Virus record (IMG/VR): IMGVR_UViG_3300003322_000089
Coordinates: 1 to 64,000 of that record
Origin: a virus
DNA: 64,000 bases
Strand: one strand, 5' to 3'
Positions 3,127 to 29,713 of this stretch are shown piece after piece (positions within the stretch are counted from its first letter, which is position 1; each line of letters starts with the position of its first letter). The translations under genes and the position numbers were made by a program. The notes under the pieces are model-generated. The model was given only the letters and a program-made list of their open reading frames with translations. It was not told the origin of the DNA and ran no database searches.

Positions 3127-3537
3127 ATGTATATTTTCGTATATGGGACCCTTATGCAGGGTTATGGGAATTGGAATAGATACCTCAGAGATCGTTCCCA
3201 ACTGATTACCAATGGGACTCTCAGGGGTTATAAGCTTTTTGATAGTGGATTTCCTGTTGCTTCTATCTCCCCTGATGATTGTGTCTATGGTCAAGTCTTC
3301 TTGATTGATGCAGGGAGAGAACCATCAGTTGTGAGAGATTTGGATTTCCTGGAGGGATACCACAAGGATTATCATGATGGCTCTATGTACCATCGTATTC
3401 CTGTGAGTATCTTTGGAGATGACGGAACCCAATATGAATGTGAGACCTACAGGGGTAATCTCAGATTCTGGAACAACTTTGAGGGAATGAGAGATGTATC
3501 AAGGGATGCAGAGAATAGATATCACTGGTCCAGATAG
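3127..3537 (+). CDS. Gamma-glutamyl cyclotransferase (AIG2/GGCT-like) protein
   Basis: N-terminal VYGTLMQGYGN (the YGTL/YGSL hallmark) plus LDFLEGY...YHR, which contains the catalytic-Glu region. Confidence 0.75.
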   Translation: MYIFVYGTLMQGYGNWNRYLRDRSQLITNGTLRGYKLFDSGFPVASISPDDCVYGQVFLIDAGREPSVVRDLDFLEGYHKDYHDGSMYHRIPVSIFGDDGTQYECETYRGNLRFWNNFEGMRDVSRDAENRYHWSR

Positions 3538-3775
3538 TTTTCAGGTTGGGGATATTATTGTAAGTCCATCATATACGAGGACTGTACTAAGAATTAATAC
3601 TGATGATAATGGATTACTCTATTGTTCCGTCATATACAATAACGACAAAAGATCGGTGGGCAATGCGACATATGAGTGGACTAATTTCGACTTTCCGGGT
3701 TACGAATTATACCGTCCTTATGCAGAAGCACCATACGATCCAACCCAAGTAGGGGATACAGAAGATGACATATGA
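3494..3775 (+). CDS. Tail-family small protein 1 (ends EAPYDPTQVGDTEDDI)
   Basis: Listed ORF with the conserved C-terminal peptide. Start is uncertain (ATG 3494 or 3506). FQVGDIIV strand motif near the N-terminus. Confidence 0.7.
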   Translation: MYQGMQRIDITGPDSFQVGDIIVSPSYTRTVLRINTDDNGLLYCSVIYNNDKRSVGNATYEWTNFDFPGYELYRPYAEAPYDPTQVGDTEDDI

Positions 3776-3914
3776 AGACAGATTGGCACAAAGAACCATC
3801 GAAGGGTATATTCAGAACTTCAGTGCCCTCAAGAGGGTGATCAAAGAGAAATCGTCATATAAGCCCAAGGAAGAGCTTTTGGGTAAAAGTGGTATCTCGT
3901 ATCGGATTTCATGA
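3765..3914 (+). CDS. Hypothetical small protein (49 aa)
   Basis: Its ATG is embedded in the upstream tail codons (GATGACATATGA), the same overlap pattern as at 4635, 6511 and 8831. Confidence 0.4.
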   Translation: MTYEDRLAQRTIEGYIQNFSALKRVIKEKSSYKPKEELLGKSGISYRIS

Positions 3915-4108
3915 GAAACGCTCTCAGCGAGCTTCTGTGTGTCAAAGAAGGGTATTATAGATGCTGGTGGGGTGGTCTGATTGGACATAGGGCAATAGGT
4001 GTCAGTTGGATCACCTCACATGAAGTACCTACTTGCAGTACTAAACCTTTTGAACTTGGTACTGCAAGAACATACATCAAGAACATACATCAAGAACTTA
4101 ACTATTAG
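3911..4108 (+). CDS. Hypothetical protein
   Basis: ORF with an ATGA overlap. Its 3' part contains a 10-bp perfect inverted repeat and a 13-nt tandem duplication, so it may be partly regulatory DNA. Confidence 0.4.
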   Translation: MRNALSELLCVKEGYYRCWWGGLIGHRAIGVSWITSHEVPTCSTKPFELGTARTYIKNIHQELNY

Positions 4109-4360
4109 TACTATACTAAAGTACTTAAAAATAAAAAAGAACCTAGAGAATTTACTATTGGAATAACCTATAGAACTGATTCTTGAAGTAATTACTAGAT
4201 GTAGTTACTTACAGTAATATACTTAAAGTATGATATTTTATCAGATTTGATTTCTTTTGTCAATAGGTAAATTCCATTGATCTTAGATTTATTTTTGTGT
4301 CCGATCAAGAGGCGATAGCCTCCTCACCCCCAGTTCCGTCCACCCCCCTAGGTTCCAAAG
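4109..4360 (+). promoter_or_regulatory. AT-rich non-coding spacer with TTCTTGAAGTA box, TTGTCAATAGGTAAAT box and a C-rich tract
   Basis: No ORF. It shares the boxes TTCTTGAAGTA (4180-4190), TTGTCAA-AGG-TAAAT (4257-4272) and a C-run element (4322-4352) with the 61.9-62.9 kb hub. Confidence 0.6.
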
Positions 4361-4645
4361 ATGACGACATTTAGAACAACAGATGTCCTTGTGTACAACG
4401 AGGAGTTCAGTGCAGATATGTTTCAACCAAACTTTGGCGACATCAACGATGAGTACGCACTACGTAGATCAAGAGATGTGACATTTAGTGATCGTTCATA
4501 CGGAGAAGAAGAAGGAGACCTCGTTTATGTCCGTAACTTGAGAACTGGTAACGAAGGGCGCGGGTTCTGGTGGAGACTTAAAGTCGGGTACACAAATACT
4601 CCATACGATCCTACTCAAGCTGGAGATACTGCAGATGACATCTGA
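4361..4645 (+). CDS. Tail-family small protein 2 (ends NTPYDPTQAGDTADDI)
   Basis: Listed ORF with the conserved C-terminal peptide. Confidence 0.75.
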   Translation: MTTFRTTDVLVYNEEFSADMFQPNFGDINDEYALRRSRDVTFSDRSYGEEEGDLVYVRNLRTGNEGRGFWWRLKVGYTNTPYDPTQAGDTADDI

Positions 4646-4850
4646 AAGAATGTCGGATCTAACGAAGTTAGAGATATCTGAGGGTGACACTGTGAGACTA
4701 AAGTTCACCAAGAGAAACAAGATGGGATGGCTCCATAGGCTATACGGTCCTGATCTTGTGGTTGACACTATTGTAGGTTCCTTGGTTTATCTGAGGGGGA
4801 TTCCACAACAACACAATGGGTGGTTACGTGACAGATTCGAGAAAGTTTAA
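4635..4850 (+). CDS. Hypothetical protein (G-D-x-V strand motif, no tail)
   Basis: Its ATG lies inside the upstream tail codons (GATGACATCTGA). An alternative GTG at 4690 sits behind GAGGG. Confidence 0.55.
   Translation: MTSERMSDLTKLEISEGDTVRLKFTKRNKMGWLHRLYGPDLVVDTIVGSLVYLRGIPQQHNGWLRDRFEKV
4655..4674 (+). promoter_or_regulatory. Copy a of the recurrent motif GGATYTAACGRAGTTARAGRGG
   Basis: GGATCTAACGAAGTTAGAGA, 10 nt after the stop of tail gene 2. Confidence 0.5.
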
Positions 4851-5082
4851 ATTTGGAGATCGTGTAGTCTACACTGGTGCATACAGTGAGTTCAATACTC
4901 TAAGTGCCATTGGTGAGACTGGTACAGTAAGTTCTATTAATGGCAATCAAGTGAATGTCGTCTGGGATAATATAAGACGGAATGAACTTTTTGGTTATTG
5001 GGGTGTGTACTCACAGAATATAGAACTTGAGTCTAAACCATACGACCCTACTCAAGCAGGGGATACCGATGATGATATTTAA
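4816..5082 (+). CDS. Tail-family small protein 3 (ends SKPYDPTQAGDTDDDI)
   Basis: Listed ORF with FKFGDRVVY motif and conserved tail. Start is uncertain (ATG 4816 or GTG 4828). Confidence 0.75.
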   Translation: MGGYVTDSRKFKFGDRVVYTGAYSEFNTLSAIGETGTVSSINGNQVNVVWDNIRRNELFGYWGVYSQNIELESKPYDPTQAGDTDDDI

Positions 5083-5159
5083 CTTCACGTAGCTCAACTG
5101 GATAGAGCCTCCGGTTTCTACCCGGATGGTTAGGGGTTCGAATCCCTTCGTGAAGGCCA
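5083..5159 (+). tRNA. tRNA-Arg (anticodon UCU), CCA encoded
   Basis: Hand-folded cloverleaf: acceptor CTTCACG/CGTGAAG, D arm GCTC-AACTGGATA-GAGC, anticodon arm TCCGG-TTTCTAC-CCGGA, T arm AGGGG-TTCGAAT-CCCTT, discriminator G, then CCA. Confidence 0.9.
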
Positions 5160-5160
5160 C

Positions 5161-5235
5161 TTTCCTTTCGTTTAATTGGTAAGACGCTGGTCTTTGGTAC
5201 CAGAAATCCATGTTCGAACCGTGGCGGGAGAGCCA
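5161..5235 (+). tRNA. tRNA-Gln (anticodon UUG), CCA encoded
   Basis: Hand-folded: anticodon arm CTGGT-CTTTGGT-ACCAG, T arm CCATG-TTCGAAC-CGTGG, D arm GTTT-AATTGGTA-AGAC. It has U1-A72 and G73. There is one 7:66 mismatch. Confidence 0.75.
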
Positions 5236-5375
5236 ATATGCATTTAAAAGCTCATAGACCGTTCCTACGTCACTCAGGTATGCTCTAAATCGACCATACA
5301 AGGCTGTACAGAGCGTTTCTAGAGTTTTATGATACTAGACACCAGAAACAAGTGAATGCTTGTCAGCGAGGTTAT

Positions 5376-5636
5376 ATGAAAGAAAATTGGGATTATGTAT
5401 CTTTTGAAAATTACTCGAAGGATATGCAAGAAAGCTCAGACAGGGCTTCAAATATAATCCGACAACAGAGAGGGGAGATTGATAGGTTAAATGAGCTCAT
5501 AGCTGGTTTGGTTTATAGTAATCCCAATCATGAAATCCTAATTCCAACTTCAAATCTCGACATAAACGATCTCAAATTAACTGTAAGTTACGATCCATGT
5601 GAAATGAGATACATCTACAAGGCAAATAGGAGATAA
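5376..5636 (+). CDS. Hypothetical protein
   Basis: ORF; ATG 5376 behind AGCGAGG is preferred over the listed GTG 5352. Confidence 0.55.
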   Translation: MKENWDYVSFENYSKDMQESSDRASNIIRQQRGEIDRLNELIAGLVYSNPNHEILIPTSNLDINDLKLTVSYDPCEMRYIYKANRR

Positions 5637-5637
5637 C

Positions 5638-6300
5638 ATGCCTGTAATTCATTCTAGCGTAAGTACTGTATGCACTGCAACTCATCTGACCAACTGGTCC
5701 CTTCCAGGATTTGATAGTGATGATGAGAAAGTCTTGGTGAATGCCAAGCTCAATGAGGTAGACCATCTGATGAAGGCAGGGTTCAAGAGGGACTTTGCCA
5801 TGATGGAAGTTATCGTCACAGAAACTCAGAGATCAAAGTACAAGCTGGATGAGTTCCTTCCGAAGATCGGATTTGAATTCACTCGTACATTCCCCAAGAG
5901 TGACGCAAAGAGCACTCAGCGTCACCAGGAAACAGGTGATCTTCACCTTTGGACCACCACTCCCAAGATCTATGAGAAAGCTCTAAAGGACTACCACAAG
6001 GAACTGACAGAACTCAAGGAGCGTATCGATCCTCCCAAGAAGCCTGATCCCAAGCGTCAGAAGTTCCCTGATCTCCTCTTGAGTGCCCTTCGTAAGGCAG
6101 AGATGGTTCAGAACAATACCTCTGTTAACAACCCCATCCATCAGGTTCTCACTGTCTCTGATGATGTACTCTATCGTCATCTCAAGATGAAGTACGGTAT
6201 TGATATCAAGAAGTGGAATAACCTTGGTGATGCATGGACCAAGATCACCATCCGTCAGTTGAAGCAGTATCAGATGGACTGGAAGGCTGAACTCGTATGA
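5638..6300 (+). CDS. Hypothetical protein (220 aa)
   Basis: Long ORF with plausible composition. No motif recognised. Confidence 0.65.
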   Translation: MPVIHSSVSTVCTATHLTNWSLPGFDSDDEKVLVNAKLNEVDHLMKAGFKRDFAMMEVIVTETQRSKYKLDEFLPKIGFEFTRTFPKSDAKSTQRHQETGDLHLWTTTPKIYEKALKDYHKELTELKERIDPPKKPDPKRQKFPDLLLSALRKAEMVQNNTSVNNPIHQVLTVSDDVLYRHLKMKYGIDIKKWNNLGDAWTKITIRQLKQYQMDWKAELV

Positions 6301-6521
6301 GGACCTATCCTTGTTATCTCCGTTCCAAAGAAAGCGGCAACCTCTACTTCTTTGAAGGGAGAGGTTATGAATGTACTTTTATTGAAACTTCAAGGAATCA
6401 TTCTCAATACCGCTCAGGTCAAAAGGTTGTTATTGGGTACACATCTGAGGATAAGTTCCTGTGGACAGAGGAATCTCCATATGATCCAACCCAAGTAGGG
6501 GACACAGAAGATGACATCTAG
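6297..6521 (+). CDS. Tail-family small protein 4 (ends ESPYDPTQVGDTEDDI)
   Basis: ATGA overlap with the upstream stop. Conserved tail. Confidence 0.75.
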   Translation: MRTYPCYLRSKESGNLYFFEGRGYECTFIETSRNHSQYRSGQKVVIGYTSEDKFLWTEESPYDPTQVGDTEDDI

Positions 6522-7131
6522 TAACAAGGGTAAGGTCTATGTCGTAGGTACAGACAGGAATGTCACCAGTATGTTCTTCGAGAGGGGCTATATGATCACC
6601 CATAGACAGTCAGATGCTGACATTCTTTGTTTCATTGGTGGTGCTGATATTGACCCCAATTTCTATGGACAAAAGAAGAACCCTGTCTTGAATATTAATA
6701 CATCACCCACTTGTGATGCCAGAGATAGTCAGGCTTGGAAACAGAAGACCTCTAATCAATTGTCTGTAGGTATTTGCAGGGGTGGACAATTCCTTTCGAG
6801 TATGTCCGGTGGGAGTATGATCCAGCATGTTGTAGGTCATATGGGAGTCCATAAGGTCTATGATACTGTCTGGAACACAGAGGTACAAGTTGCCTCTTGT
6901 CATCATCAAATGATGGTTCCTGGTCCAGATGCAGAAATCTTTGCCTATACCGAGGATCATGCAAAAGAGGCTTGGGACGATCAAGGAAAGATTGAAGTAC
7001 CCAAGGTAGAACCAGAGGTTATCTGGTACGACAAGACCAAGTGCCTGTGTTATCAAGGTCATCCTGAGTGGAACCCTCAGACAGGTACAGACTATTTCTT
7101 CAATCTCCTTGAGTTGGTTAAGGATTGTTAG
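6511..7131 (+). CDS. Class I glutamine amidotransferase-like / peptidase C26 (gamma-glutamyl hydrolase-type) protein
   Basis: GGADIDPNFYG, nucleophile elbow GICRGGQF, HHQ and GHPEW, in the typical C26/PuuD-like order. Its ATG is embedded in the upstream tail codons. Confidence 0.7.
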   Translation: MTSSNKGKVYVVGTDRNVTSMFFERGYMITHRQSDADILCFIGGADIDPNFYGQKKNPVLNINTSPTCDARDSQAWKQKTSNQLSVGICRGGQFLSSMSGGSMIQHVVGHMGVHKVYDTVWNTEVQVASCHHQMMVPGPDAEIFAYTEDHAKEAWDDQGKIEVPKVEPEVIWYDKTKCLCYQGHPEWNPQTGTDYFFNLLELVKDC

Positions 7132-7133
7132 AT

Positions 7134-7382
7134 ATGAAGTGGAATGTAGGTGAAGAGGTTGAAGTTGTAACCAAGAGGCATGGTGGAAGCCAATTCGGTC
7201 TGATTGGTACTGTAATGAAGAATGACGGCTCTAATTATGGGTCCGGACTAGATCATATAGTGGACTTTGGTGAGATGATCAGGGGTTGCCTAAGAATAAA
7301 TTACTATTCGTACTCCGATCTCCAAACTACTGAGAAACCATATGACCCTACTCAGGTAGGGGATACTGATGACGATATCTGA
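7134..7382 (+). CDS. Tail-family small protein 5 (ends EKPYDPTQVGDTDDDI)
   Basis: MKWNVGEEVEVV start at ATG 7134 (the listed ORF begins at TTG 7125). Conserved tail. Confidence 0.75.
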   Translation: MKWNVGEEVEVVTKRHGGSQFGLIGTVMKNDGSNYGSGLDHIVDFGEMIRGCLRINYYSYSDLQTTEKPYDPTQVGDTDDDI

Positions 7383-7389
7383 TCGTCTT

Positions 7390-7411
7390 GGATTTAACGA
7401 AGTTAGAGAGG
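7390..7411 (+). promoter_or_regulatory. Copy b of the recurrent motif GGATYTAACGRAGTTARAGRGG
   Basis: GGATTTAACGAAGTTAGAGAGG, 8 nt after the tail-gene stop and 9 nt before TTG-TGT of the GAT-II gene. Confidence 0.5.
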
Positions 7412-7420
7412 ATATTTAAT

Positions 7421-8542
7421 TTGTGTGGACATCTAGGAATGATGGGTCCAGGTATTCAACGAGAAGACCTTGCGATCATTAAACAATTGGGTATTGTCTC
7501 TCAGCTAAGGGGACTTGATGGTTCTGGTATCTACCAGACAAGAACTACAAAGTACAATGCCTACTCTCCAAACTACGATCTCCTGTTCAAGACATACAGT
7601 CCATTCTCTAGCATTCTTGATGAGTCGTCTGGACATAATGGGAAGTACAAAGAACTCTTGAACTCTGTGATGGTCGATGTTGTCATTGGTCACGTAAGGG
7701 CTAGTACTCAGGGTGTAATCTCCGATCAGAATGCTCATCCTTTTGAGTTCGATAACATCGTAGGTGCTCACAATGGTACTCTTAAGGATGCTCAGTACCT
7801 CTCTCATCCAGTGAAGACAGATTCTGAATTAATGTTCAAGGATATCAGCAAGAGGGGTATTACTCCTGTTGTAGAAGCTCTGGATAGAGACTCTGCCTTT
7901 GCCATCGTTATGTACGATAAGATAGACAAGCATGTTTATTTTGTCCGGAACGAACTTAGGACACTGTGTTTTGCCTTCATCAAGGACAGAGCAGTCATGT
8001 ATTGGGCGTCTGAACTGGTCATGCTTGAGTATATCCTGAAGAGAAATCACCAGGATTATAGGATTTTCTCTCTTCATGAGAATTATCTTATCAAAATCAA
8101 CCCCAATGATATAACTCTAAACAATAATAAAAAAGAAGATCCTCTTGACATTCTGAAAGTCCATAAGAAACTCGTGCGTCCACTTCCCACCTCATACCAA
8201 AAAGCTAAGGATGAGATGGAACGCAGGAAGAAACTGGAGAAAGAGAAAGAAACCAAGAGTAACTGGACCCCTGATCAGTACTCCTTCGAGTTGAATAAGA
8301 CAAAGGATAAAGGAGGTAAAGTACTCCAAGGAAATTTTCCACAGACCAAAATCAAGAGCAAACCATTCTCAGTGAAGAGTTGCTATACTCGTTGTGCCTG
8401 TGGCAAAACTACTTTGAATTTGTTGGAAACCAATCAGACCCATCGGGGAATTCATCCTAGGTATCGTTACGATAAGTCAGAGAAAAAGATCTATTGTGAT
8501 GTATGTCCAGACAACAAGATCGAGTGCAAAGAGGTGGTATGA
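7421..8542 (+). CDS. Class II (Ntn) glutamine amidotransferase-domain protein with a long C-terminal extension and Cys-rich end
   Basis: TTG 7421 is followed directly by Cys (CGHLGMMG), as required for an Ntn nucleophile. GHVRASTQG and NAHPF motifs. C-terminal CxC...CxxC. Confidence 0.7.
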   Translation: MCGHLGMMGPGIQREDLAIIKQLGIVSQLRGLDGSGIYQTRTTKYNAYSPNYDLLFKTYSPFSSILDESSGHNGKYKELLNSVMVDVVIGHVRASTQGVISDQNAHPFEFDNIVGAHNGTLKDAQYLSHPVKTDSELMFKDISKRGITPVVEALDRDSAFAIVMYDKIDKHVYFVRNELRTLCFAFIKDRAVMYWASELVMLEYILKRNHQDYRIFSLHENYLIKINPNDITLNNNKKEDPLDILKVHKKLVRPLPTSYQKAKDEMERRKKLEKEKETKSNWTPDQYSFELNKTKDKGGKVLQGNFPQTKIKSKPFSVKSCYTRCACGKTTLNLLETNQTHRGIHPRYRYDKSEKKIYCDVCPDNKIECKEVV

Positions 8543-8841
8543 TGAAAAATCCTGCAAGTACGGAGAGGTTGGTTTTTAATGTCGGTGACGAAGTTGAATT
8601 TGTGGGGCGGGTGGGTGATCTCGGCTCTCAGTTTGAGGGTTCTGTTGGGACTATAATTAACCCCTCTGATCCAGCTTGGAAATCTCATTTAGTGTGTTGT
8701 GTTAGATTTCATTCTGGTTCATTAGCTGGAAGAGTATCTACTGGACGACAAGGAGGGTACTGTGTGTATTCAAGACACCTAGCACTAGCATCTAAACCCT
8801 ATGATCCAACCCAAGCTGGAGACCAAGACGATGACATTTAA
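8539..8841 (+). CDS. Tail-family small protein 6 (ends SKPYDPTQAGDQDDDI)
   Basis: ATG 8539 overlaps the upstream TGA, with GAGGTGG upstream. FNVGDEVEFVG motif. Confidence 0.75.
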   Translation: MMKNPASTERLVFNVGDEVEFVGRVGDLGSQFEGSVGTIINPSDPAWKSHLVCCVRFHSGSLAGRVSTGRQGGYCVYSRHLALASKPYDPTQAGDQDDDI

Positions 8842-9079
8842 TGTAGGTGATCGTATAGAGTATTTTAGAGGGAACTCCTTAGCCAATGAGAGGTTCTTTG
8901 GGCTAACTGGGACTATCGTGGGAAAAATGTCGTACGGAATGGTGGCCATCCGGTGGGATCACTATTGTCTAGAAAATATGTATGCAGATACGAGATGTGT
9001 CTGGTCAGTCCATAATATAAAACCACTTATGAACGATTATGATCCTACTCAGGTAGGTGATACTGAGGATGATATCTAA
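8831..9079 (+). CDS. Tail-family small protein 7 (ends NDYDPTQVGDTEDDI)
   Basis: MTFNVGDRIEYF start at an ATG embedded in the upstream tail codons (GATGACATTTAA). Confidence 0.75.
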   Translation: MTFNVGDRIEYFRGNSLANERFFGLTGTIVGKMSYGMVAIRWDHYCLENMYADTRCVWSVHNIKPLMNDYDPTQVGDTEDDI

Positions 9080-9796
9080 ATGACGACAATTAAAATTGGA
9101 TGTGACCCAGAGTCATTCATTGTAGATGGCAAGGGTGATTTTATTCCAGCCATTGGTATTATTCCTGGAGATAAGGAAAATCCATACCCTGTGGATGGTG
9201 GTGCAGTTCAAGTCGATGGATTGGCAGTAGAGTTTAATATTCACCCTGCCGAGACGGCAGATCAGTTTGTTGGGAATATCAAGAAGGTTCTCTACCAGAT
9301 TGATGAGATGATACACTCCTTTGATAAGGACTTTTCCATCAGGCATACACCGGTAGCTACATTCCGTCAGACCATCTGGAATATGGCACCAGAACAAAGC
9401 AAGATCCTCGGGTGCGACCCAGATTATAATGTCAAGGGGGATATCAACGAGAACCCTACAATGAGACTGGAAAATAGTACCATCCGTACTGCTGCCGGTC
9501 ATATCCACATTGGTTGGCTTGATGAACTCCTTGAAGACCCAATGCAGGGAGATCATTTTGAGACGTGCTTGGACATTGCCAATGGTTTCTTCCACGGTCA
9601 TCTATCCACCTTCATTCCTAGTACACAGGAAGAAGAAGAGCGGATGAAATACTACGGTCACAATGGTTCTTTCCGTCCCAAGAAGTATGGTATTGAACTC
9701 CGTGCACCAAGCAACCTTTGGGTTAGAACCGAAGAAACTCAGAAGCTTATCTTCAATCAGACAAGGAAGAAGTTCCATGAGCTTACAGGACTATAG
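9080..9796 (+). CDS. COOH-NH2 ligase, glutamine-synthetase/GCS fold (phage 'type 2' amidoligase-like)
   Basis: N-terminal GCDPESF...G..QVDG.AVEFNI.P pattern plus HIHIG. From memory this matches the phage phiEco32-like COOH-NH2 ligase type 2 family. Not verified. Confidence 0.55.
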   Translation: MTTIKIGCDPESFIVDGKGDFIPAIGIIPGDKENPYPVDGGAVQVDGLAVEFNIHPAETADQFVGNIKKVLYQIDEMIHSFDKDFSIRHTPVATFRQTIWNMAPEQSKILGCDPDYNVKGDINENPTMRLENSTIRTAAGHIHIGWLDELLEDPMQGDHFETCLDIANGFFHGHLSTFIPSTQEEEERMKYYGHNGSFRPKKYGIELRAPSNLWVRTEETQKLIFNQTRKKFHELTGL

Positions 9797-9807
9797 GGAG
9801 TGTAATC

Positions 9808-10089
9808 ATGTTACCGGCCTTTAAAGTTGGTGATGAAGTTGAGTACAGACACCCACATATGGAAGTAAAAGATTTGGATGGTTCTTTTGGATATATAGTG
9901 GCTGTATTTCCCAGAAGATTTCAGGACCCACCTGAAGAAGTTCATCATTATCATGTTAATTGGGAATCTGGTCCTGCTGTATTTCAAAAAATATATACTA
10001 GTAACACTCGATGGGGAGAGCCTGTACTACATCTGTCAAGTAATACATATGATCCCACTCAAATGGGTGATACTGATGAAGACATCTGA
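9808..10089 (+). CDS. Tail-family small protein 8 (ends NTYDPTQMGDTDEDI)
   Basis: FKVGDEVEY motif and conserved tail. Confidence 0.75.
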   Translation: MLPAFKVGDEVEYRHPHMEVKDLDGSFGYIVAVFPRRFQDPPEEVHHYHVNWESGPAVFQKIYTSNTRWGEPVLHLSSNTYDPTQMGDTDEDI

Positions 10090-10110
10090 AAGAATGTTCT
10101 AGAGGGTAAG

Positions 10111-10731
10111 ATGAAACAACGTTGGAAAGGTGATGATGTTAAGGCTCGTCTCCATGGGACCATCATCAGATATAAGAGCCATCCGTACCTCTGTGGAGTA
10201 GACGGACATAGCATTAATCTAATCGATCTCCAGACTGGTAGTACAGTTGGTACTGTGGACAGTGACGATGATCTCCTTGATGTATCTAGTGTACCTCTTG
10301 GCTATGTGAATATTGTCCACCCTGATTACAAACTTTGTGTTTATCTCAAGCGTGACCCTCTTCGTAGGTTCAAGCAGGGTGTAGAAGTAGATATCCTCAC
10401 TCAGAAGATCCTAAGGGATGGTTGGAGTCCTATCAGCAGGGATATTATTCGTTCCAAGTCTCTTGTTGACACAATTCTTGGACGGTTCCCTTCATACAAG
10501 GAGGCTCTGGATTTCATTACGAAGAAGGGTTTCCATTCTGTGGCTTTGAGTAGAGACATTGCTCTTAAACGGGAGGGTGAACTCCTTAAAGTATATCTCA
10601 AAGAGTCTGAAGTTGGGTACATTCGACTTGGTACTGACAGGGTGATTGTCCCCAAGACAGACCAGAGCTACTATCACATTCTACTTCTAGAAGATCTCCA
10701 TGGTTGGGAAGTAATCGAGGGTTCAAAATGA
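10111..10731 (+). CDS. Hypothetical protein (206 aa)
   Basis: ORF with GAGGG upstream. No motif recognised. Confidence 0.65.
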   Translation: MKQRWKGDDVKARLHGTIIRYKSHPYLCGVDGHSINLIDLQTGSTVGTVDSDDDLLDVSSVPLGYVNIVHPDYKLCVYLKRDPLRRFKQGVEVDILTQKILRDGWSPISRDIIRSKSLVDTILGRFPSYKEALDFITKKGFHSVALSRDIALKREGELLKVYLKESEVGYIRLGTDRVIVPKTDQSYYHILLLEDLHGWEVIEGSK

Positions 10732-10991
10732 GAAAAGAAGTAGTTCCAGGAATTTATGATGGTGATGAGCTAGAGTTTGTAGGTAATGCTCCTAGCTGGA
10801 TTAAGGACAGTCCCATTAGGGCATTCTACTCAGAACTGTACACACAGATGAGGTCACATTACATTACTATACGAATCGGCGGAATGAGTTACAATCCCGA
10901 TGATTGTCATTCATACTCTGCTAAAGATCTTAGACTTAAAGAACAACCATATGATCCGACACAAGCAGGGGATACCGATGAGGATATTTAA
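10728..10991 (+). CDS. Tail-family small protein 9 (ends EQPYDPTQAGDTDEDI)
   Basis: ATGA overlap with the upstream stop at 10728 (the listed ORF begins at 10704). Conserved tail. Confidence 0.75.
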   Translation: MRKEVVPGIYDGDELEFVGNAPSWIKDSPIRAFYSELYTQMRSHYITIRIGGMSYNPDDCHSYSAKDLRLKEQPYDPTQAGDTDEDI

Positions 10992-11013
10992 CCCCCGTAG
11001 GAGGGTCTTCATT

Positions 11014-11035
11014 GAATCTAACGGAGTTAGAGAGG
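11014..11035 (+). promoter_or_regulatory. Copy c of the recurrent motif (GAATCTAACGGAGTTAGAGAGG)
   Basis: Lies between tail genes 9 and 10. Its GAGAGGG end serves as the SD for ATG 11043. Confidence 0.5.
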
Positions 11036-11042
11036 GTGACAT

Positions 11043-11309
11043 ATGATTGAAGTTGGTGATTATGTAGAATACTGCTTTGAGGGGTATGGGAACGAGCGTT
11101 ATCATGGAAGTATAGGAAGAGTTCTAGAAGTTAGAAATTACTACGGATACAGTGAATACCAATGTGCAGTATTTTGGGAAAGTGGTCTACTTTCTGAACA
11201 CGAAAGTTATAAAACCCCAAGACTATTCTGGGACAGAACCATCAAGAAGGCCTGCGTTAATAGAGATTACGACCCCACACAGATGGGTGACACTGAGGAC
11301 GACATTTAA
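11043..11309 (+). CDS. Tail-family small protein 10 (ends RDYDPTQMGDTEDDI)
   Basis: IEVGDYVEY motif and conserved tail. Confidence 0.75.
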   Translation: MIEVGDYVEYCFEGYGNERYHGSIGRVLEVRNYYGYSEYQCAVFWESGLLSEHESYKTPRLFWDRTIKKACVNRDYDPTQMGDTEDDI

Positions 11310-11318
11310 GGATTTAAA

Positions 11319-12347
11319 ATGAATCAGATTGTAAATGTTTATGATATTCTAAAGGCTCAGACCAAGTTCTCTGGTGATCGTCATCATGGTGAATTTGGTG
11401 TGGAGATCGAGACTGAGACAGAGAAGTCTTATGAATACCCCAAGATGAAATTCTGGAACACAACCAAGGATAATTCCTTGCGTGATTGGGGTGTGGAATA
11501 TGTTCTCAAGGCTCCCATGAACCTTCCTGAATTTGAGAAAGCTCTTGAAGAATTCTCCATTTGTGAGAAGAAATACAAGTTTAGGAATGGATCTATCTCT
11601 ACCAGTGTCCATGTCCATATTAATTTTCAGAATGATACCTTCTTGACATTGGCAAACTTCTGTACTGCCTATGCATTGGTAGAGAATCTTCTGATCAAAT
11701 ACTCTGGACCAGACCGGTTGAGTAATCTTTTCTGTCTTCCGATGTGTGATGCAGAGGGTGTTGTCTCCAATATTGTTAACCTATTGTCATTTGTCAACAG
11801 GAATATGTATGCCAAGGTTCCTGGATCAGTGTCAGTAGACAGGTGTAAGTATGGTGCACTCAATCCAGCACCTATTACCACACTAGGAACTCTCGAAGTT
11901 AGATGTTTCAGGGGTGAGACAGACTCCAAAATCATCCAACGATGGGTAGAAATCATCAAGAAACTGAAGGATTTTTCTCGTAGGGAGGGCTTGACACCAC
12001 CAGATATCCTCAAACTCTGGAAGGAAAACAAGGCTACCATCGTCGATATCATCTTCCAAGAGTATGCAAGTGACCTTAAGTATAAGGAAACTGATGAACT
12101 GATTCGTAAGAATTTGAAGTATGCAGCAGATATTGCTTGTGTTTCCAAGACTTGGGATAAATTCGGTATCCTTAAGATCAAACCTGTCTATAAGGAAGTG
12201 GCTAAGGACAAGTTGGACAGGATCTCCAATGATATGTTCCAGAGGCTCTACGATTCCCTCAACTACCATGAGCGTATTGCAGTGGCAGAGAAGTATCAAG
12301 CAATGAACCCTACAACAAGAATCGTGGATCTAAATGACGATATCTAG
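11319..12347 (+). CDS. Putative amidoligase (Amidoligase_2-like, GS fold); ends in VDLNDDI
   Basis: GEFGVEIETE and STSVHVHI motifs, typical of the 'putative amidoligase enzyme' family (from memory). The acidic C-terminus resembles the tail. Confidence 0.6.
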   Translation: MNQIVNVYDILKAQTKFSGDRHHGEFGVEIETETEKSYEYPKMKFWNTTKDNSLRDWGVEYVLKAPMNLPEFEKALEEFSICEKKYKFRNGSISTSVHVHINFQNDTFLTLANFCTAYALVENLLIKYSGPDRLSNLFCLPMCDAEGVVSNIVNLLSFVNRNMYAKVPGSVSVDRCKYGALNPAPITTLGTLEVRCFRGETDSKIIQRWVEIIKKLKDFSRREGLTPPDILKLWKENKATIVDIIFQEYASDLKYKETDELIRKNLKYAADIACVSKTWDKFGILKIKPVYKEVAKDKLDRISNDMFQRLYDSLNYHERIAVAEKYQAMNPTTRIVDLNDDI

Positions 12348-12354
12348 TATCGTT

Positions 12355-12374
12355 GGATTTAACGAAGTTAAAGG
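12355..12374 (+). promoter_or_regulatory. Copy d of the recurrent motif (GGATTTAACGAAGTTAAAGG), followed by an orphan tail-end relic
   Basis: Located 8 nt after the amidoligase stop. 12371-12390 (AAGGATGATATCTAAATGAC) matches 9065-9084 at 19 of 20 positions. Confidence 0.5.
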
Positions 12375-12385
12375 ATGATATCTAA

Positions 12386-13186
12386 ATGACAATTACAGCA
12401 ATCTTTGCTTATGCAAACTACTCTGAAGGTGCTAATGAGCTAAAGACAGCTCTTGGTGTCCCTAAGATCAAGCACACAGGTTCCAAGTTTAAAGCAGCTC
12501 CCACCAAAACTATTCTTAACTGGGGGGCTACGACAGATAGGTTCCCTGAAGAATACAATAGATGCAATGTCATCAATAAGCCTCAGAATGTCGATCTTGC
12601 AGTAGATAAGAAGAAGGCATTCCGTAAATTCAGAGAACATGGAGTATCTATTCCTGAGTTCACAGAGGACAAGGAAACTGCTACCCAATGGCTTGAAGCA
12701 GGGCAGATGGTCTTTGCTCGTACTAGACTCCATGATCATAGCGGTCGCGGTATCGTCATCATGGACCCTGAATTTCCTGATACTTGGGAAGTAACGGCAG
12801 AACTGTTCGTCAAATACGTTCCCAAGAAAGATGAATACCGCATCCATGTTCTCAATGGACAGATCATCGACATTCAGCGTAAGGGTCTTCGTGCAGAGTT
12901 GAGAGGTTCTGAGGGTATCAACTATAAGATCAGAAATCTTTCTAACGGTTTCATCTATGTCCGTAACGATAGTAATGAGACCCCCCTGATCTCTTCTGCA
13001 TCAGTCCCTCAGATTGTCAAGGATGTGGGTATTGCAGGTGTTCAGGCACTGGGTCTTGACTTTGGTGCTGCCGATGTAATCTACAATGAGAAATCTCGTA
13101 GAGCATATATCCTTGAGGTCAACAGCGCGCCGGGCCTAAGTGGCTCTACTGTAACCAACTATGCAGAGGCATTTGGACGGCTATGA
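12386..13186 (+). CDS. ATP-grasp ligase (RimK-like)
   Basis: Size and motif layout of RimK-type ATP-grasp enzymes: FARTRLHDHSGRGIV, KYVPKKDEYRIHV and ILEVNSAPGL. Confidence 0.7.
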   Translation: MTITAIFAYANYSEGANELKTALGVPKIKHTGSKFKAAPTKTILNWGATTDRFPEEYNRCNVINKPQNVDLAVDKKKAFRKFREHGVSIPEFTEDKETATQWLEAGQMVFARTRLHDHSGRGIVIMDPEFPDTWEVTAELFVKYVPKKDEYRIHVLNGQIIDIQRKGLRAELRGSEGINYKIRNLSNGFIYVRNDSNETPLISSASVPQIVKDVGIAGVQALGLDFGAADVIYNEKSRRAYILEVNSAPGLSGSTVTNYAEAFGRL

Positions 13187-13458
13187 GAATCCAAGATTAT
13201 CCATTTGAACCTATTACTAAAGATACTGTACTATCTGTAGGTGATATCTTTTATGAAAATAATTATCAGTATTATATTACTTACATTGATGACACAACTT
13301 TCAGATACATAGCCAGTAGTTTTATTCATGATTGGACTGGTAAAGAAAGTACTAGTCAATTGAGTTCCATTACAAACTCTAATGGATACTTCAAGAAAGT
13401 AATCTTTGAAAGACCCTATGATCCCACCCAAGCGGGTGACACAGACGACGATATCTAA
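13183..13458 (+). CDS. Tail-family small protein 11 (ends ERPYDPTQAGDTDDDI)
   Basis: ATGA overlap with the ATP-grasp stop. Conserved tail. Confidence 0.75.
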   Translation: MRIQDYPFEPITKDTVLSVGDIFYENNYQYYITYIDDTTFRYIASSFIHDWTGKESTSQLSSITNSNGYFKKVIFERPYDPTQAGDTDDDI

Positions 13459-13475
13459 TTAAGGAATTAATAACA

Positions 13476-14615
13476 GTGTGTGTGATTCTCCATCTATCTG
13501 CTGGTGCTACTATCAACAAGCGTCAACTCTATAACGCTGTACATAACAATTGGCATGGCTTTGGTCTAGTTCTTAAGGACCAGAATAATCGTATCCAACT
13601 CACCAAGGGCTTCAGGGAAAACGGTACTGACCCTGAAGAGATCTGGAAGCTTCTGGAAGATAACAAAGATATCGAACGGTATCTTCATGTCCGTCATTCC
13701 ACTCGTGGTGCACCAGATGATACCAACGTTCAGCCCTTTGAAGTTTACAATTCCAATGAACGTCAGATCTTCTTCATGCACAATGGCACCCTATCCTCAT
13801 TTGGAGGGGCGTGGAACAACGATCAGGGAAAGAGTGATACACTAGAGTTCTGCGAGAAGATTCTCTCCCCCGCCCTTCTACGTTGGTCTGGTGCCAATGG
13901 TAAAGCTGACTATACCGATGAAGAATTCTTTCGTCTGGTAATGGAAAAGCAGTGGTCATCTGGCTCCACTGGTCTGTTCGTTTCCAACGATCTTGAACCC
14001 AGACGTATTGGTGCTGGATGGTCAGAATACAAACACCCAGATGACACCAGTAGTGGTACTGTCTGGACTTCCAATACTTCCTATTTCGATAGGGTTCAGC
14101 GTGGGCCTGAATTTCAAAGGTTGGAAGCAATCAAGAAAGCAGAGGAAGAGAAGAAAAAGGAGGAGATGAACTCCTTAGTCCCTTTCGACCAGACGAATGC
14201 GAAAACCAGATCGAGTATTATGCAAGAATGGGGTGGGGGTCCGAATGGGCATACTACAACTACTGAAGTCCTGAAGTTTAATGCCAGCAATCTTGCCAAG
14301 TCTCCAAAAGTCCTTAAGGCTCTCTCTGATATTGTTAACACTTGGGACTTTGAAAATCCTGAAGACCTCCAGAAGCTCCGTTTTGTTGCATATGATGAAT
14401 GGATCAACTTCATTGACAGTGAAGGAGAGTGGGCTGTAGCTGCATTCATTGAGCATCTTACTCACCATTATCATGACATGTTCTTCAAGAATCTTGCTCT
14501 TATCGAGATGGTAAAGAAAGCAGAAACAAAGCAGAGGAAGGCAGAACAGCATATTTCCAACCTAAAGCAAATCACTTTGGAAAAGAATCCTGTAGGTAAA
14601 AATGAAGCTGCGTAG
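13476..14615 (+). CDS. Class II (Ntn) glutamine amidotransferase-domain protein, second copy
   Basis: GTG start followed directly by Cys (MCVILH). HVRHSTRG, NVQPF and HNG motifs. The C-terminal half is K/E-rich. Confidence 0.7.
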   Translation: MCVILHLSAGATINKRQLYNAVHNNWHGFGLVLKDQNNRIQLTKGFRENGTDPEEIWKLLEDNKDIERYLHVRHSTRGAPDDTNVQPFEVYNSNERQIFFMHNGTLSSFGGAWNNDQGKSDTLEFCEKILSPALLRWSGANGKADYTDEEFFRLVMEKQWSSGSTGLFVSNDLEPRRIGAGWSEYKHPDDTSSGTVWTSNTSYFDRVQRGPEFQRLEAIKKAEEEKKKEEMNSLVPFDQTNAKTRSSIMQEWGGGPNGHTTTTEVLKFNASNLAKSPKVLKALSDIVNTWDFENPEDLQKLRFVAYDEWINFIDSEGEWAVAAFIEHLTHHYHDMFFKNLALIEMVKKAETKQRKAEQHISNLKQITLEKNPVGKNEAA

Positions 14616-15201
14616 TGCAAGAAACTCGTATGATATCATCGGTACATCTGCCAAGAATACTCCAGACTGGATGGACCTAAAGAAATCTGCATATGATGAA
14701 TTCCTTGTCTTTGTAGTTGGTAACACTCGTAGGTATAGATCCAGGTCTGCCCTTATGGAGGGTGCCAACTATTATGGTGAGGGTGTAACATTCGATGATA
14801 ATTATATTATGAAGAGATCAATGACAGCGGCTGGAAATAAAAACCCGGAACCACTGTTGTTCACATTTGATAAGGTTAAGAATTGGAATGATTTTAAACC
14901 CATCTTCCGTAGAGAACATTTAAAGCATATCGAAGGTGATGTATACGGTATCCCACTCCGAAAGCTTGCTCAACTCGATCAATATGAAGGTAATGGAGAT
15001 TTCATCACCAGAATTTCCAGATGGGTAAAACTCCTTCATCCCAAACAAGAAGGTACTACTGTTAAAGCATGGATGTGGGTAGTGGACACTGATGCTTGGA
15101 TGGAATGTTATTCGGGTGGAAATGAACTCAATCTTTGTAACACTATTAATCATATGGTAGGTCCAGAAAAGGAGTCCTTCAATGCCTACTACTTTGCATA
15201 A
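14602..15201 (+). CDS. GGCT/AIG2-like protein, divergent second copy
   Basis: LVFVVGNTRR replaces YGTL. VYGIPL...LDQYEGNGDFITR matches the catalytic-Glu segment seen in 3127..3537. Confidence 0.5.
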   Translation: MKLRSARNSYDIIGTSAKNTPDWMDLKKSAYDEFLVFVVGNTRRYRSRSALMEGANYYGEGVTFDDNYIMKRSMTAAGNKNPEPLLFTFDKVKNWNDFKPIFRREHLKHIEGDVYGIPLRKLAQLDQYEGNGDFITRISRWVKLLHPKQEGTTVKAWMWVVDTDAWMECYSGGNELNLCNTINHMVGPEKESFNAYYFA

Positions 15202-15496
15202 ATATGACGGTGATGATTACGAATATGTAAGCACCAAAGATATTCTTGTTGGTGATATTGTTATTCACAAATCTTGGTTAGCAAATGCAGGGTCTAAGAT
15301 AACGTATGAGATTGTCTATAATAATCCACAAGAAGAGAGGATCTACGGTATTGATCCTAGATGGGATAGCAGATCAAGAAACTCTGACTATAGATGGAAT
15401 TACAGTAGTAACTTCGGATACACTGGGTGGCTACGTAAAGTAACTGAGTATCCTTACGACCCAACACAAATGGGAGATCAAGAAGATGATATTTAA
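15182..15496 (+). CDS. Tail-family small protein 12 (ends EYPYDPTQMGDQEDDI)
   Basis: ILVGDIVIH motif and conserved tail. Confidence 0.75.
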   Translation: MPTTLHKYDGDDYEYVSTKDILVGDIVIHKSWLANAGSKITYEIVYNNPQEERIYGIDPRWDSRSRNSDYRWNYSSNFGYTGWLRKVTEYPYDPTQMGDQEDDI

Positions 15497-15806
15497 AGAT
15501 CTGGTACTTTCTGAATTTAAATCTTGGGATGAGATCCTTCTTGGAGATAAACTTGTCTGGTGTAGAGATGGTAAAGTTTTGTATGATTACTTAGTGTCTT
15601 TTGAAAGATTAACAGACTATGAGATGTTTGGTTCTAATGAAATAGGAGACCCAGACGATGATGATGACTATGATAGTGAAGGAGACGGATGGAGTAGAGA
15701 CATTTATCCGACAAAAAGTTATTCCATGATTTGTGGTTGGATGAAGGTGGTGGAAGAAGTTCCATATGATCCCACACAAATGGGAGATCAAGAAGATGAT
15801 ATTTAA
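15486..15806 (+). CDS. Tail-family small protein 13 (ends EVPYDPTQMGDQEDDI)
   Basis: Its ATG is embedded in the upstream tail codons (GATGATATTTAA). Conserved tail. Internal poly-Asp stretch. Confidence 0.75.
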   Translation: MIFKDLVLSEFKSWDEILLGDKLVWCRDGKVLYDYLVSFERLTDYEMFGSNEIGDPDDDDDYDSEGDGWSRDIYPTKSYSMICGWMKVVEEVPYDPTQMGDQEDDI

Positions 15807-16122
15807 TCTAGGTGATGTAGTAGAGTATACCAATAAGAAGTATAAGGCAGATATGATTGGGTATATCATTGCCTATGAGGGTTCCTATGTTTGTGTAGAG
15901 ACTCTCAGTGGTGATAGTGGGTGTACACAAGAAAAGTCTTGGTTCTGGAAGAATGAACAGAGTGATTATCTTTCTGACAGATTTGAGCAACTGGGTTTTG
16001 CAAGTGGGTATACTTCGAAGAGTGATAAATGCCAATGGATTCCTAAGAGGTCTCGTAACCTCAAGCAAGCAATAAGAGAATACGATCCTACACAAGCAGG
16101 GGATACCGATGAGGACATTTAA
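15796..16122 (+). CDS. Tail-family small protein 14 (ends REYDPTQAGDTDEDI)
   Basis: MIFNLGDVVEY start at an ATG embedded in the upstream tail codons (the listed ORF begins at 15766). Confidence 0.75.
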   Translation: MIFNLGDVVEYTNKKYKADMIGYIIAYEGSYVCVETLSGDSGCTQEKSWFWKNEQSDYLSDRFEQLGFASGYTSKSDKCQWIPKRSRNLKQAIREYDPTQAGDTDEDI

Positions 16123-16402
16123 GATCATCGACTATTTTGCTAACTTGTTCTATGGAAAGATATATAAAAAGAAATTTAATATTGGAGACCGAGTTAGATA
16201 CAAGCCAACAAAAGCATTCTGGCAAAACCTTACTATCATAAAGTATGACTTCTGTTATAATGGTAAATGGTGGATTGTAGCCGAAGATACGGATGACCCA
16301 AGTTATAGAAAGATACCTGTTGAGGAACACAGTCTGGAACTTGTCTGTGTAGAACATCCTTATGATCCCACTCAGATGGGTGATACAGATGAAGACATTT
16401 AA
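16109..16402 (+). CDS. Tail-family small protein 15 (ends EHPYDPTQMGDTDEDI)
   Basis: Its ATG lies inside the upstream tail codons (GATGAGGACATTTAA). FNIGDRVRY motif. Confidence 0.75.
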   Translation: MRTFKIIDYFANLFYGKIYKKKFNIGDRVRYKPTKAFWQNLTIIKYDFCYNGKWWIVAEDTDDPSYRKIPVEEHSLELVCVEHPYDPTQMGDTDEDI

Positions 16403-16491: not shown

Positions 16492-16755
16492 ATGACAAAA
16501 GATAAACTCAAGGAACTTCAAGAACTATCTCGTACAGTAAATCGTAGTGGTACGAACAGGTGCAGCCTGTGTAATTGTGTATCAAATGAGAGTATCGAAA
16601 CAGAGATTGGTGATTACCGTCATCACATGAGTTTCACACAAGATCCAAAGTTTAATGACTCTGTTATCTGTATTACATGCGCAGAGGTTATCGAAGATCA
16701 ACGACAAGACTATGAATATCTAGATCTAAACGACGATTACGATTTTGATAATTAA
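16492..16755 (+). CDS. Small zinc-finger protein with an acidic C-terminus (LDLNDDYDFDN)
   Basis: CSLCNC...CITC, i.e. four Cys in two pairs. Confidence 0.6.
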   Translation: MTKDKLKELQELSRTVNRSGTNRCSLCNCVSNESIETEIGDYRHHMSFTQDPKFNDSVICITCAEVIEDQRQDYEYLDLNDDYDFDN

Positions 16756-16763: not shown

Positions 16764-17240
16764 ATGGAGTATAGACGTGACGATAGAATATACGATTCAG
16801 AAACTGGAAAATTTCACTGGGCTTTAGACATTCAAAATAAGATCGGAAGAAAAACCCCAGGAAAAGAAATCGGCAGCAATAACGGTAGGGGTTATATTCA
16901 GATTACTTATAACGATCATATGGTTATGGCAGGTAGATTAGCTTGGTTTTTTGTACACGGAGAATGGCCTAAAGGTCAAATTGACCACATTAATCGTGAT
17001 AGATCAGATAATAGATTAGAAAACCTTAGAGTAGTAACACAAAGAGTTAATGCTCATAATAGAGCTAATAATCAAAAAATCCCGGGCGTTAGAAGATCAA
17101 GATCTGGTAAAAGATACATTGCCAGGATAGTTATCAATAAAAAAGAAAAGCATTTGGGCTCCTTTTCTACAGAAGAGGAAGCAGCTGCTGCCTATCAAAA
17201 AGCATTTGATGAGGTACATAGATTTGAGCAAGTGGATTAA
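16764..17240 (+). CDS. HNH homing endonuclease with AP2 DNA-binding domain
   Basis: GQIDHINRDRSDNRLENLRVVTQRVNAHN (HNH_3) followed by GVRRSRSGKRYIARI...LGSFSTEEEAAAAY (AP2). Confidence 0.85.
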   Translation: MEYRRDDRIYDSETGKFHWALDIQNKIGRKTPGKEIGSNNGRGYIQITYNDHMVMAGRLAWFFVHGEWPKGQIDHINRDRSDNRLENLRVVTQRVNAHNRANNQKIPGVRRSRSGKRYIARIVINKKEKHLGSFSTEEEAAAAYQKAFDEVHRFEQVD

Positions 17241-19617: not shown

Positions 19618-19853
19618 TGTGGTATGATTATGTTTCTGCATACATCTGCATTGGTTTTATTATCTGCCTTCTGAACTTTATGTATAGAGTTTATTCCAAT
19701 CAAGTGTTTAGTCCCTCTGTTGAACGTTTGATCTTTGGTATTTCCCTATGGCCTATTGTTGCCATCTATCTGGTCTTTGATGTTAGTATGAGTGTCCTAG
19801 ATTTTATTGGGGATAGTGATATCTGGATCAAGAAAAAGGATAGGGATGAATAG
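19617..19853 (+). CDS. Small membrane protein (2 TM segments)
   Basis: ORF with two hydrophobic segments. Confidence 0.55.
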   Translation: MWYDYVSAYICIGFIICLLNFMYRVYSNQVFSPSVERLIFGISLWPIVAIYLVFDVSMSVLDFIGDSDIWIKKKDRDE

Positions 19854-21723: not shown

Positions 21724-22566
21724 TTGGATATCGTAGTTAAAGGTATCTTGGAGTATGTACAAAGCCTAGAAGGACACAAGAATTCAGTCCTTGCAGGTGG
21801 GGCAGTCAGAGATCAAATCTATGGTTTAGTTCCAAATGATTATGATATCTTTGTTCCTAGTAAGCATCCAAGAGATATCGAATATCTGATCCAGAGTGTT
21901 GGTAAGGAGTTTAATATCTCTGATGTTCTGTGCAAGACCAAGAGTTATGATACTCATCAGACAAGAGGTATCAGTAAGCATGAACAGAGGTTGACTAGCG
22001 TTTGGGAACTAGTTTTTGAAGGAAAGAAGATTGACCTCATTGGTCAGAGAGAAAATGACGATGAGGACTTCCCCTTTGAAGTAATTAAGTCTTTCGATTA
22101 TGGCATCAATATGATCTACGATAATGGTAGCTATGTTGATTCTGAGGATGAGAACTTTAGGTACGATAGGGATTATCAATGTATGTCCCTCATTAATCTG
22201 CATGATATGTCTGCACTACCAAAGCTGATCAATAGATACCAGAAGTTTTCAAAAAGGTATAGGGATCTAACTGGTGGTGAATTCCGATTTAGGGCACCAT
22301 GTCTACAGTTCACAGACAAGAAAGAAAAGAAACTAGATCATTACCTCACAGATTCTTACTCTTATGGCTCTGGAAGTACTGGAACTATCAGTAGATCAGT
22401 GAGTGCTAGACTAACAACTGCTTGGACTGAGGCTGCAACAACTGAAGAACCAGGTTGGGGTGCAGAAAGGGCTTTGGAAATAATCCAATCCATTCAAACA
22501 ACTCGTAATCAACAGGCTGTAGATAACCCAACTATTGCAAATAGCATCTTCGATGATAATTTTTAA
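21724..22566 (+). CDS. Nucleotidyltransferase of the CCA-adding / poly(A) polymerase head-domain type
   Basis: GGAVRDQIYGLVPNDYDIFV matches the GGxVRD...DxD signature. TTG start. Confidence 0.65.
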   Translation: MDIVVKGILEYVQSLEGHKNSVLAGGAVRDQIYGLVPNDYDIFVPSKHPRDIEYLIQSVGKEFNISDVLCKTKSYDTHQTRGISKHEQRLTSVWELVFEGKKIDLIGQRENDDEDFPFEVIKSFDYGINMIYDNGSYVDSEDENFRYDRDYQCMSLINLHDMSALPKLINRYQKFSKRYRDLTGGEFRFRAPCLQFTDKKEKKLDHYLTDSYSYGSGSTGTISRSVSARLTTAWTEAATTEEPGWGAERALEIIQSIQTTRNQQAVDNPTIANSIFDDNF

Positions 22567-22580
22567 GAAAGGAATTTATA

Positions 22581-23186: not shown

Positions 23187-23198
23187 TAGGAGAATAAT

Positions 23199-24576: not shown

Positions 24577-24585
24577 GAAACTAAA

Positions 24586-28336: not shown

Positions 28337-28347
28337 AGGAGAATAAT

Positions 28348-28470: not shown

Positions 28471-28482
28471 GGATAAAATCAT

Positions 28483-28590: not shown

Positions 28591-28600
28591 TAATAAATAG

Positions 28601-28635: not shown

Positions 28636-28645
28636 AGGAGACATA

Positions 28646-29712: not shown

Positions 29713-29713
29713 T

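Follow-up and report, generated by a model that had tools for sequence, protein, structure and literature searches.

Small phage proteins with a shared C-terminal peptide, encoded among amide-ligase genes, as candidate substrates or partners of a proposed protein ligation system

Tail genes and the enzymes between them

The DNA analyzed here (the window) is a 64-kb stretch of a virus genome, positions 1 to 64,000 of the IMG/VR record IMGVR_UViG_3300003322_000089, and it contains a module in which the genes for 15 small proteins with a common C-terminal peptide (the tail) are interleaved with eight enzyme genes on the same strand. An initial annotation had placed 15 such open reading frames (ORFs) here, and a check of the ORFs and their peptides bore this out: 15 plus-strand ORFs of 74–118 amino acids, all within 3494-16402, end in the 13 residues [YD]DPTQ[AVM]GD[TQ][DE][DE]DI followed by a stop codon. 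Most of the starts and lengths first given also stood, except that two genes begin with TTG, at 7125 rather than 7134 and at 10704 rather than 10728, and that the lengths had been put at 74–108 amino acids. Along the plus strand, the tail genes are 3494..3775 (tail protein 1, a predicted SH3/KOW-like barrel followed by YDPTQVGDTEDDI), 4361..4645 (tail protein 2, ending in …YDPTQAGDTADDI), 4816..5082 (tail protein 3), 6297..6521 (tail protein 4, with the start of the C26 gene, 6511, inside its tail DNA), 7125..7382 (tail protein 5, with the first TTG start and an alternative ATG at 7134), 8503..8841 (tail protein 6, modeled as a disordered N terminus, a β-barrel at residues 25–95 and the tail), 8801..9079 (tail protein 7, whose stop adjoins the COOH-NH2 ligase start at 9080), 9808..10089 (tail protein 8), 10704..10991 (tail protein 9, with the second TTG start and an alternative ATG at 10728), 11043..11309 (tail protein 10, ending 10 nt 5' of the Amidoligase_2 gene), 13183..13458 (tail protein 11, before the GAT-II gene at 13476), 15182..15496 (tail protein 12), 15486..15806 (tail protein 13), 15766..16122 (tail protein 14), and 16109..16402 (tail protein 15).

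The tail is conserved as a peptide. Residues Y, D, P, T, Q, G, D, the final D, and I were invariant across the 15 tails, while third codon positions varied wherever the code allows (Pro as CCT, CCC, CCA, or CCG; Gly as GGG, GGT, or GGA), and the example of synonymous tail codons quoted in the initial annotation was exact. Mean identity among the tails was 69% for DNA and 74% for amino acids. In pairwise comparisons over the 13-codon core, the proportion of synonymous differences was saturated (pS = 0.87) and that of nonsynonymous differences was low (pN = 0.096; pN/pS ~0.11). Saturated synonymous sites alongside retained amino acids mean that selection acts on the peptide, not the DNA, and that the copies are old. 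We conclude, on this codon evidence, that the tail is under strong purifying selection as a peptide and does not reflect recent DNA copying. A degenerate DNA pattern of the tail core matched 14 of the 15 tails in the window and had no match in 100 dinucleotide-preserving shuffles. No further ORF of the window carries the peptide; four DPxQ sites lie beyond the 15, two of them in noncoding frames (20575 and 43229, both on the minus strand).

The bodies preceding the tails are strongly diverged, at ~25% identity to one another. Their consensus contains the motif F-x-V-G-D-x-V-x-Y, as had been proposed, although it follows a variable N-terminal extension of 10–30 amino acids and does not open the protein. 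An AlphaFold2 model of a tail protein, built from an alignment of 50 paralogs from the window and from metagenomes (pLDDT 76, pTM 0.62), comprised a disordered N terminus, a small five-stranded barrel at residues ~25-95, and the tail. With the barrel model as query, the best Foldseek match was the PHF1 Tudor domain (E~0.02) and the best VIA match was the Spt5 KOW domain (Z 7.7), with NusG and PsaE at about Z 7. These N-terminal domains are thus predicted to be small barrels of the SH3/KOW/Tudor kind, with modest scores that are typical of generic small barrels.

The family assignments first proposed for all eight enzymes held up against Pfam, NCBIfam, and homology to Pseudomonas phage PA11. 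All are on the plus strand: a gamma-glutamyl cyclotransferase (GGCT/AIG2; 3127..3537; PF06094, E 1.1e-17); a gamma-glutamyl hydrolase of the Peptidase C26/class-I GATase-like type (6511..7131; PF07722, E 1e-11); an Ntn GAT-II-like protein (GATase_6/4) with a Cys-rich C-terminal region (7388..8542; GATase_6, E 1e-10); a phiEco32-type COOH-NH2 ligase (9080..9796); an Amidoligase_2 with a glutamine synthetase (GS)-like fold (11319..12347; PF12224, E 5e-8); a RimK/R2K-like ATP-grasp protein of the alpha-L-glutamate ligase family (12386..13186); a second Ntn GAT-II-like protein with a GTG start (13476..14615; GATase_4/6, E 3e-5); and a second GGCT-like protein (14602..15201; E 2.9e-7). The COOH-NH2 ligase is PF14395-like, with a match under the Pfam cut-off (E 0.007), and shares 39% identity with the COOH.NH2 ligase annotated in PA11 (E 2e-50). 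The best NCBIfam matches of the ATP-grasp protein were the MptN α-L-glutamate ligase, a GRASP ribosomal peptide maturase, and rimK_fam, all under trusted cut-offs, including TIGR00768 at E 2.4e-6. The GS fold proposed for Amidoligase_2 was also recovered, in that the best Foldseek matches of its AlphaFold model were glutamine synthetase, YbdK, and glutamate-cysteine ligase, at low TM (~0.3). Two further plus-strand proteins of the module (5638..6300 and 10111..10731) have no family assignment and are conserved in related loci.

The window Amidoligase_2 itself ends in a tail-like D-x-x-D-I. In tail-bearing lineages (the window and the homologs L011, L034, L035, L001, and L003) the ends of this enzyme read DLNDDI, DADGDI, LTEDV, and SEEDI, and in tail-free lineages they differ (GVPF in PA11, STTW in RIO-1, NDPWRNND in L036). 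The tail-like end may reflect self-modification or mimicry of the tail.

The interleaving noted in the initial annotation extends to translational coupling and recurs in related phages. Five of the eight enzyme genes (C26, both GAT-II, the COOH-NH2 ligase, and Amidoligase_2) begin 1–57 nt past the stop of a tail gene or inside a tail, the C26 start codon being the one that lies within a tail. Overall, 7 of the 15 tails overlap or abut the start of the next gene, and at about half of the junctions the tail DNA supplies two signals, a GGNGA Shine-Dalgarno-like run in the Gly-Asp codons and an ATG in the +1 frame formed by GAT-GAx or TAT-GAT. Junctions at which tail DNA serves as ribosome-binding site and start codon include 3765, 4635, 6511, 15486, and 16109. 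To judge from these arrangements, the tail DNA carries a real second layer of signal at the DNA level. This layer cannot account for the conserved Y-D-P-T-Q, nor for conservation in tails that have no downstream gene.

Related phages and their C-terminal dialects

Relatives of the module were found in metagenomic and cultured phages, and this comparison gives the strongest of the evidence. A scan of IMG/VR with a degenerate DNA pattern for the tail returned 28 loci, with all ORF-level matches on about ten 65-70-kb phage contigs; among the loci scanned, every tail contig encodes the enzyme set except one 5.7-kb fragment. About a dozen metagenomic contigs carry the barrel family, at 4–19 paralogs each. 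A protein search with Amidoligase_2 led to two of these, one with 19 tail paralogs of the dialect DPNGEGETDDDI (L034) and one with 11 (L035), both with the full enzyme set interleaved. The same search returned a 3.5-kb contig in a Pseudobdellovibrionaceae metagenome-assembled genome (CAZFPB010000066.1) that holds four ORFs with YDPTQ tails together with Amidoligase_2, ATP-grasp, and GAT-II genes; it is probably either a prophage or a piece of phage DNA that was misbinned.

Cultured phages carry the same arrangement with other endings. Rhizobium phage RHph_I3_11 has 13 paralogs ending in [DN]QxGD[TR]EDDI among the same enzymes, and Sinorhizobium phage phiM6 has 12 ending in DQEP[ML]EDEE[TC]L beside GGCT, GAT-II, ATP-grasp, Amidoligase_2, and C26 genes; a hidden Markov model (HMM) of the window barrels also matched the phiM6 paralogs. 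In the PA11-like Klebsiella phage Asterion (PV891806), 13 small proteins ending in [LV]ENK are interleaved with amidoligase genes (GAT, COOH.NH2 ligase, amidoligase, and a RimK-like gene). These proteins have the N-terminal F-x-VGD-x-V motif and were matched by the window-barrel HMM (E 3e-7); all 13 are annotated as hypothetical. The LENK codons of Asterion contain a GGAG, and the following gene starts at the stop codon (an ATGA stop/start overlap). Taken together, these sequences indicate a single barrel family that carries, in each lineage, a different C-terminal dialect that is uniform within the genome.

No Pfam or PHROGs family covers the tail proteins, which gave only weak SH3_12 and PHROG matches, and a tblastn search of cultured phages with one tail protein as query gave no match. 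A profile search of 5.8 billion proteins returned 12 weak matches, none of them annotated; a tail protein had no relative among 185k bacterial genomes, and a search for longer, fused forms of the tail proteins found none. Our literature search found no paper on the tail family; Iyer et al. 2009, which was outside that search, may hold a glimpse of it.

A generic test for families sharing a C-terminal peptide found no tail family in the enzyme-free phages T7, lambda, and P22. It returned no false families in T7 or P22 and one 3-member out-of-frame artefact in lambda, far below the families of 11–19 members, ≥60% identical, in the tail genomes. The co-occurrence expected from the initial annotation therefore holds in one direction: tail families were seen only alongside the enzymes, and the enzymes do not require tails.

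Possible functions of the tails

We tentatively favor the reading that the phage encodes a post-translational C-terminal ligation system for the small proteins and that the tail serves as its recognition or acceptor site, and we give this somewhat less than an even chance. It draws on the kinds of enzymes encoded in the module, which are known to form or cleave amide and gamma-glutamyl bonds at protein C termini. In addition, the conservation of the peptide, its single dialect per genome, and its reliance on the enzyme set suggest that each lineage has one co-evolving recognizer, which agrees with the coupling between tail and enzyme genes.

Under the favored reading, the 15 small proteins would be substrates or recognition partners of an ATP-dependent C-terminal ligation, with the ligases acting or docking at the tail. 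The RimK-like ATP-grasp protein, the GS-like ligases (Amidoligase_2 and COOH-NH2 ligase), or both would activate a carboxylate in the acidic tail, either the alpha-carboxylate at the C terminus or one on an Asp/Glu side chain. The activated group would then be joined to an amine, such that the tail is extended with amino acids as by RimK, amidated, or used to join the small protein to another protein as by PafA. Ammonia for amidation could come from the Ntn GAT-II and C26 proteins, which might alternatively cut back what the ligases add, and the GGCTs, by cutting gamma-glutamyl links, could act as editors or erasers. The shared tail would deliver the varied SH3/KOW-like barrels, as functional heads, to this machinery, and during infection these heads would most likely be directed at host targets. 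Both the modification or binding of the tails and its chemistry are thus proposed from gene content and peptide conservation. The writer/eraser interpretation offered in the initial annotation is partly supported, and we treat it as the leading hypothesis.

Several results weigh against this reading. No result links the tails to one particular enzyme, and a co-fold of the ATP-grasp protein (7-row alignment) and a tail protein (50-row alignment) with ATP and Mg gave ipSAE 0.00–0.01, no verdict, and counts neither for nor against binding. PA11, RIO-1, phiEco32, and a distant metagenomic lineage (L036/L037) encode the enzymes with no tail family. The tails are therefore no obligatory part of the enzyme module, though seemingly dependent on it; the enzymes must have other substrates, and the link to the tails may be one-way or indirect. 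Moreover, the [LV]ENK ending of Asterion is nonacidic and the dialects differ widely, so no single chemistry fits all. Finally, part of the tail DNA also serves as ribosome-binding site and start codon, and some conservation could arise from this even if the peptide had no function.

The tail might instead be an unmodified docking peptide that recruits the small proteins to one partner, be it a phage or host hub or an enzyme acting as scaffold, with the enzymes adjoining through shared timing or history. Acidic C termini do serve in this way elsewhere, as the tail of the single-stranded DNA-binding protein (SSB) recruits many genome-maintenance proteins. A strictly conserved acidic peptide with a hydrophobic last residue resembles known C-terminal interaction motifs, a single dialect across each genome implies one co-evolving recognizer here as well, and the tail-like end of Amidoligase_2 could compete for the same docking site. 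However, every genome with a tail family also has the amidoligase set, no hub protein was identified, and the ATP-grasp co-fold gave no answer; we consider docking unlikely, though it merits serious attention. If the 3' end were instead mainly a DNA signal for translational coupling, providing GGNGA (or GGAG in Asterion) and an ATG for the next gene, the peptide would be a by-product. The overlapping or abutting starts described above, with ATG drawn from GAT-GAx or TAT-GAT and GGGGA upstream, and the Asterion junctions are what such a cassette would produce, yet Y-D-P-T-Q is conserved outside any ribosome-binding element, third positions are saturated, the Gly codons vary to include GGT, which weakens the Shine-Dalgarno sequence, and tails with no following gene are equally conserved. 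We judge this explanation very unlikely.

We give as little credence to a packaging signal, by which the tail would send the small proteins into the procapsid for injection with the DNA, like the T4 internal or T7 internal virion proteins. Phage internal proteins do show such a pattern, in which a single short targeting peptide is common to many small, diverse proteins. Against this, the tail and enzyme genes are grouped with metabolic enzymes in the early/replication half, apart from the late structural module, which disfavors a capsid cargo signal; known capsid-targeting sequences are N-terminal and cleaved; and packaging offers no link to the enzymes. A more specific version of C-terminal ligation is a phage counterpart of Pup conjugation, in which barrel heads bearing a lineage-specific handle would be ligated to host proteins by the GS-like ligases, the ATP-grasp protein, or both, and the GGCT, C26, and Ntn hydrolases would edit or reverse the products. 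We regard it as improbable, but if true it would amount to combinatorial decoration of host targets by a phage during infection.

The C-terminal ligation reading would make the module akin to known bacterial systems that modify protein C termini, with the candidate substrate family as its new element. In the RimK–RpsF system of E. coli and Pseudomonas fluorescens, RimK extends the C terminus of RpsF with poly-Glu, which RimB shortens (PMC7343187). The window module likewise combines a RimK-like ATP-grasp with hydrolases, a plausible acidic C-terminal target, and a writer/eraser logic. It differs in that the candidate substrates are 15 paralogous phage barrel proteins rather than ribosomal protein S6, which does not occur near the module, and in that GS-like ligases, Ntn amidotransferases, GGCT, and C26 are added. 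The Pfam content of the module included no RimB-type protease and no RimA; C26 and GGCT are other hydrolase families.

In the Pup–PafA–Dop system of Actinobacteria, GS-like PafA joins Pup to its targets through the C-terminal carboxylate of Pup. The window shares with it a GS-like carboxylate–amine ligase fold (in the Amidoligase_2 model, weakly, at TM ~0.3) and a small protein whose conserved C-terminal motif serves as handle, and the second GS-like paralog of the window could take the role of Dop. Pup is a single, disordered modifier that ends in GGQ or GGE, is conjugated to lysines, and works with a proteasome/ARC partner, whereas the window has many paralogs predicted to be folded SH3/KOW-like barrels that end in …DDDI, with relatives ending in EETL or ENK. 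The module also recalls graspetides, a class of peptides that are made on ribosomes and modified after translation (RiPPs), in placing an ATP-grasp ligase beside ribosomally made proteins with a conserved Thr/Ser and Asp/Glu core, but graspetide precursors pair a leader with a core in which ATP-grasp ligases make lactone or lactam crosslinks, and the window proteins have no leader/core arrangement, their N-terminal part being a predicted folded barrel.

The module also matches the amidoligase modules of phiEco32, PA11, and RIO-1, where these enzyme families are likewise encoded together in the replication region. Phage amidoligase modules with phiEco32 COOH.NH2 ligase, Amidoligase_2, R2K ATP-grasp, GAT-II, and GGCT were reportedly described by Iyer et al. 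2009. The window contains a PA11-type COOH-NH2 ligase, a GS-like Amidoligase_2, an R2K/RimK-like ATP-grasp, Ntn GAT-II, GGCT, and C26, and is thus of the phiEco32 type; unlike the modules of phiEco32, PA11, and RIO-1, it also encodes a candidate substrate family, present in many copies and marked by a C-terminal peptide particular to the lineage. To our knowledge, such modules are widespread among phages, and modification of peptides or proteins by them has so far only been predicted. The window and its relatives supply a concrete candidate, namely a multi-copy barrel family whose C-terminal peptide is specific to the lineage yet uniform per genome. If the ligases act on the tails, this would constitute a phage-encoded post-translational modification pathway with many substrates, resembling RimK polyglutamylation or pupylation, and the dialects would offer a natural experiment in enzyme–substrate co-evolution.

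Genome, host, and neighboring genes

The complete virus record is 67,409 bp with direct terminal repeats, and the window covers nearly all of it. The replication genes include a T7-like primase/helicase (17206-18774) and a family-A DNA polymerase (19807-21711), and the head genes on the minus strand include a head-tail adaptor/portal (54716-56809) and a terminase (59535-61481). The head genes of the 67.4-kb genome are podovirus-type. The closest cultured relatives are phages of Rhizobium and Sinorhizobium, and on the basis of this relatedness the host is likely a root-associated alphaproteobacterium. In a sequencing-run index, the sole run with window DNA was a 2016 root metagenome, and no RNA run contained it.

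The plus strand at 21724-35565, a replication/nucleotide region, encodes a flavin-dependent thymidylate synthase (ThyX), a YfbR-like 5'-deoxynucleotidase, MazG, a B12 ribonucleotide reductase, a glutaredoxin, and a metallophosphoesterase. Amidoligases have been linked with thymidine hypermodification (PMC8989533). We set aside, but do not reject, such a DNA-hypermodification role for the module enzymes because neither a 5-hydroxymethyluracil (5-hmU) DNA kinase nor an aGPT-Pplase was found among the plus-strand genes of this region. Between the module and the primase/helicase lie two further plus-strand genes: one encodes an 87-amino-acid protein (16492-16755) that has a very acidic C terminus (…DYEYLDLNDDYDFDN) and is outside the tail family, and the next, just 5' of the primase/helicase, encodes an HNH_3 and AP2 endonuclease (16764-17240), probably a homing endonuclease.

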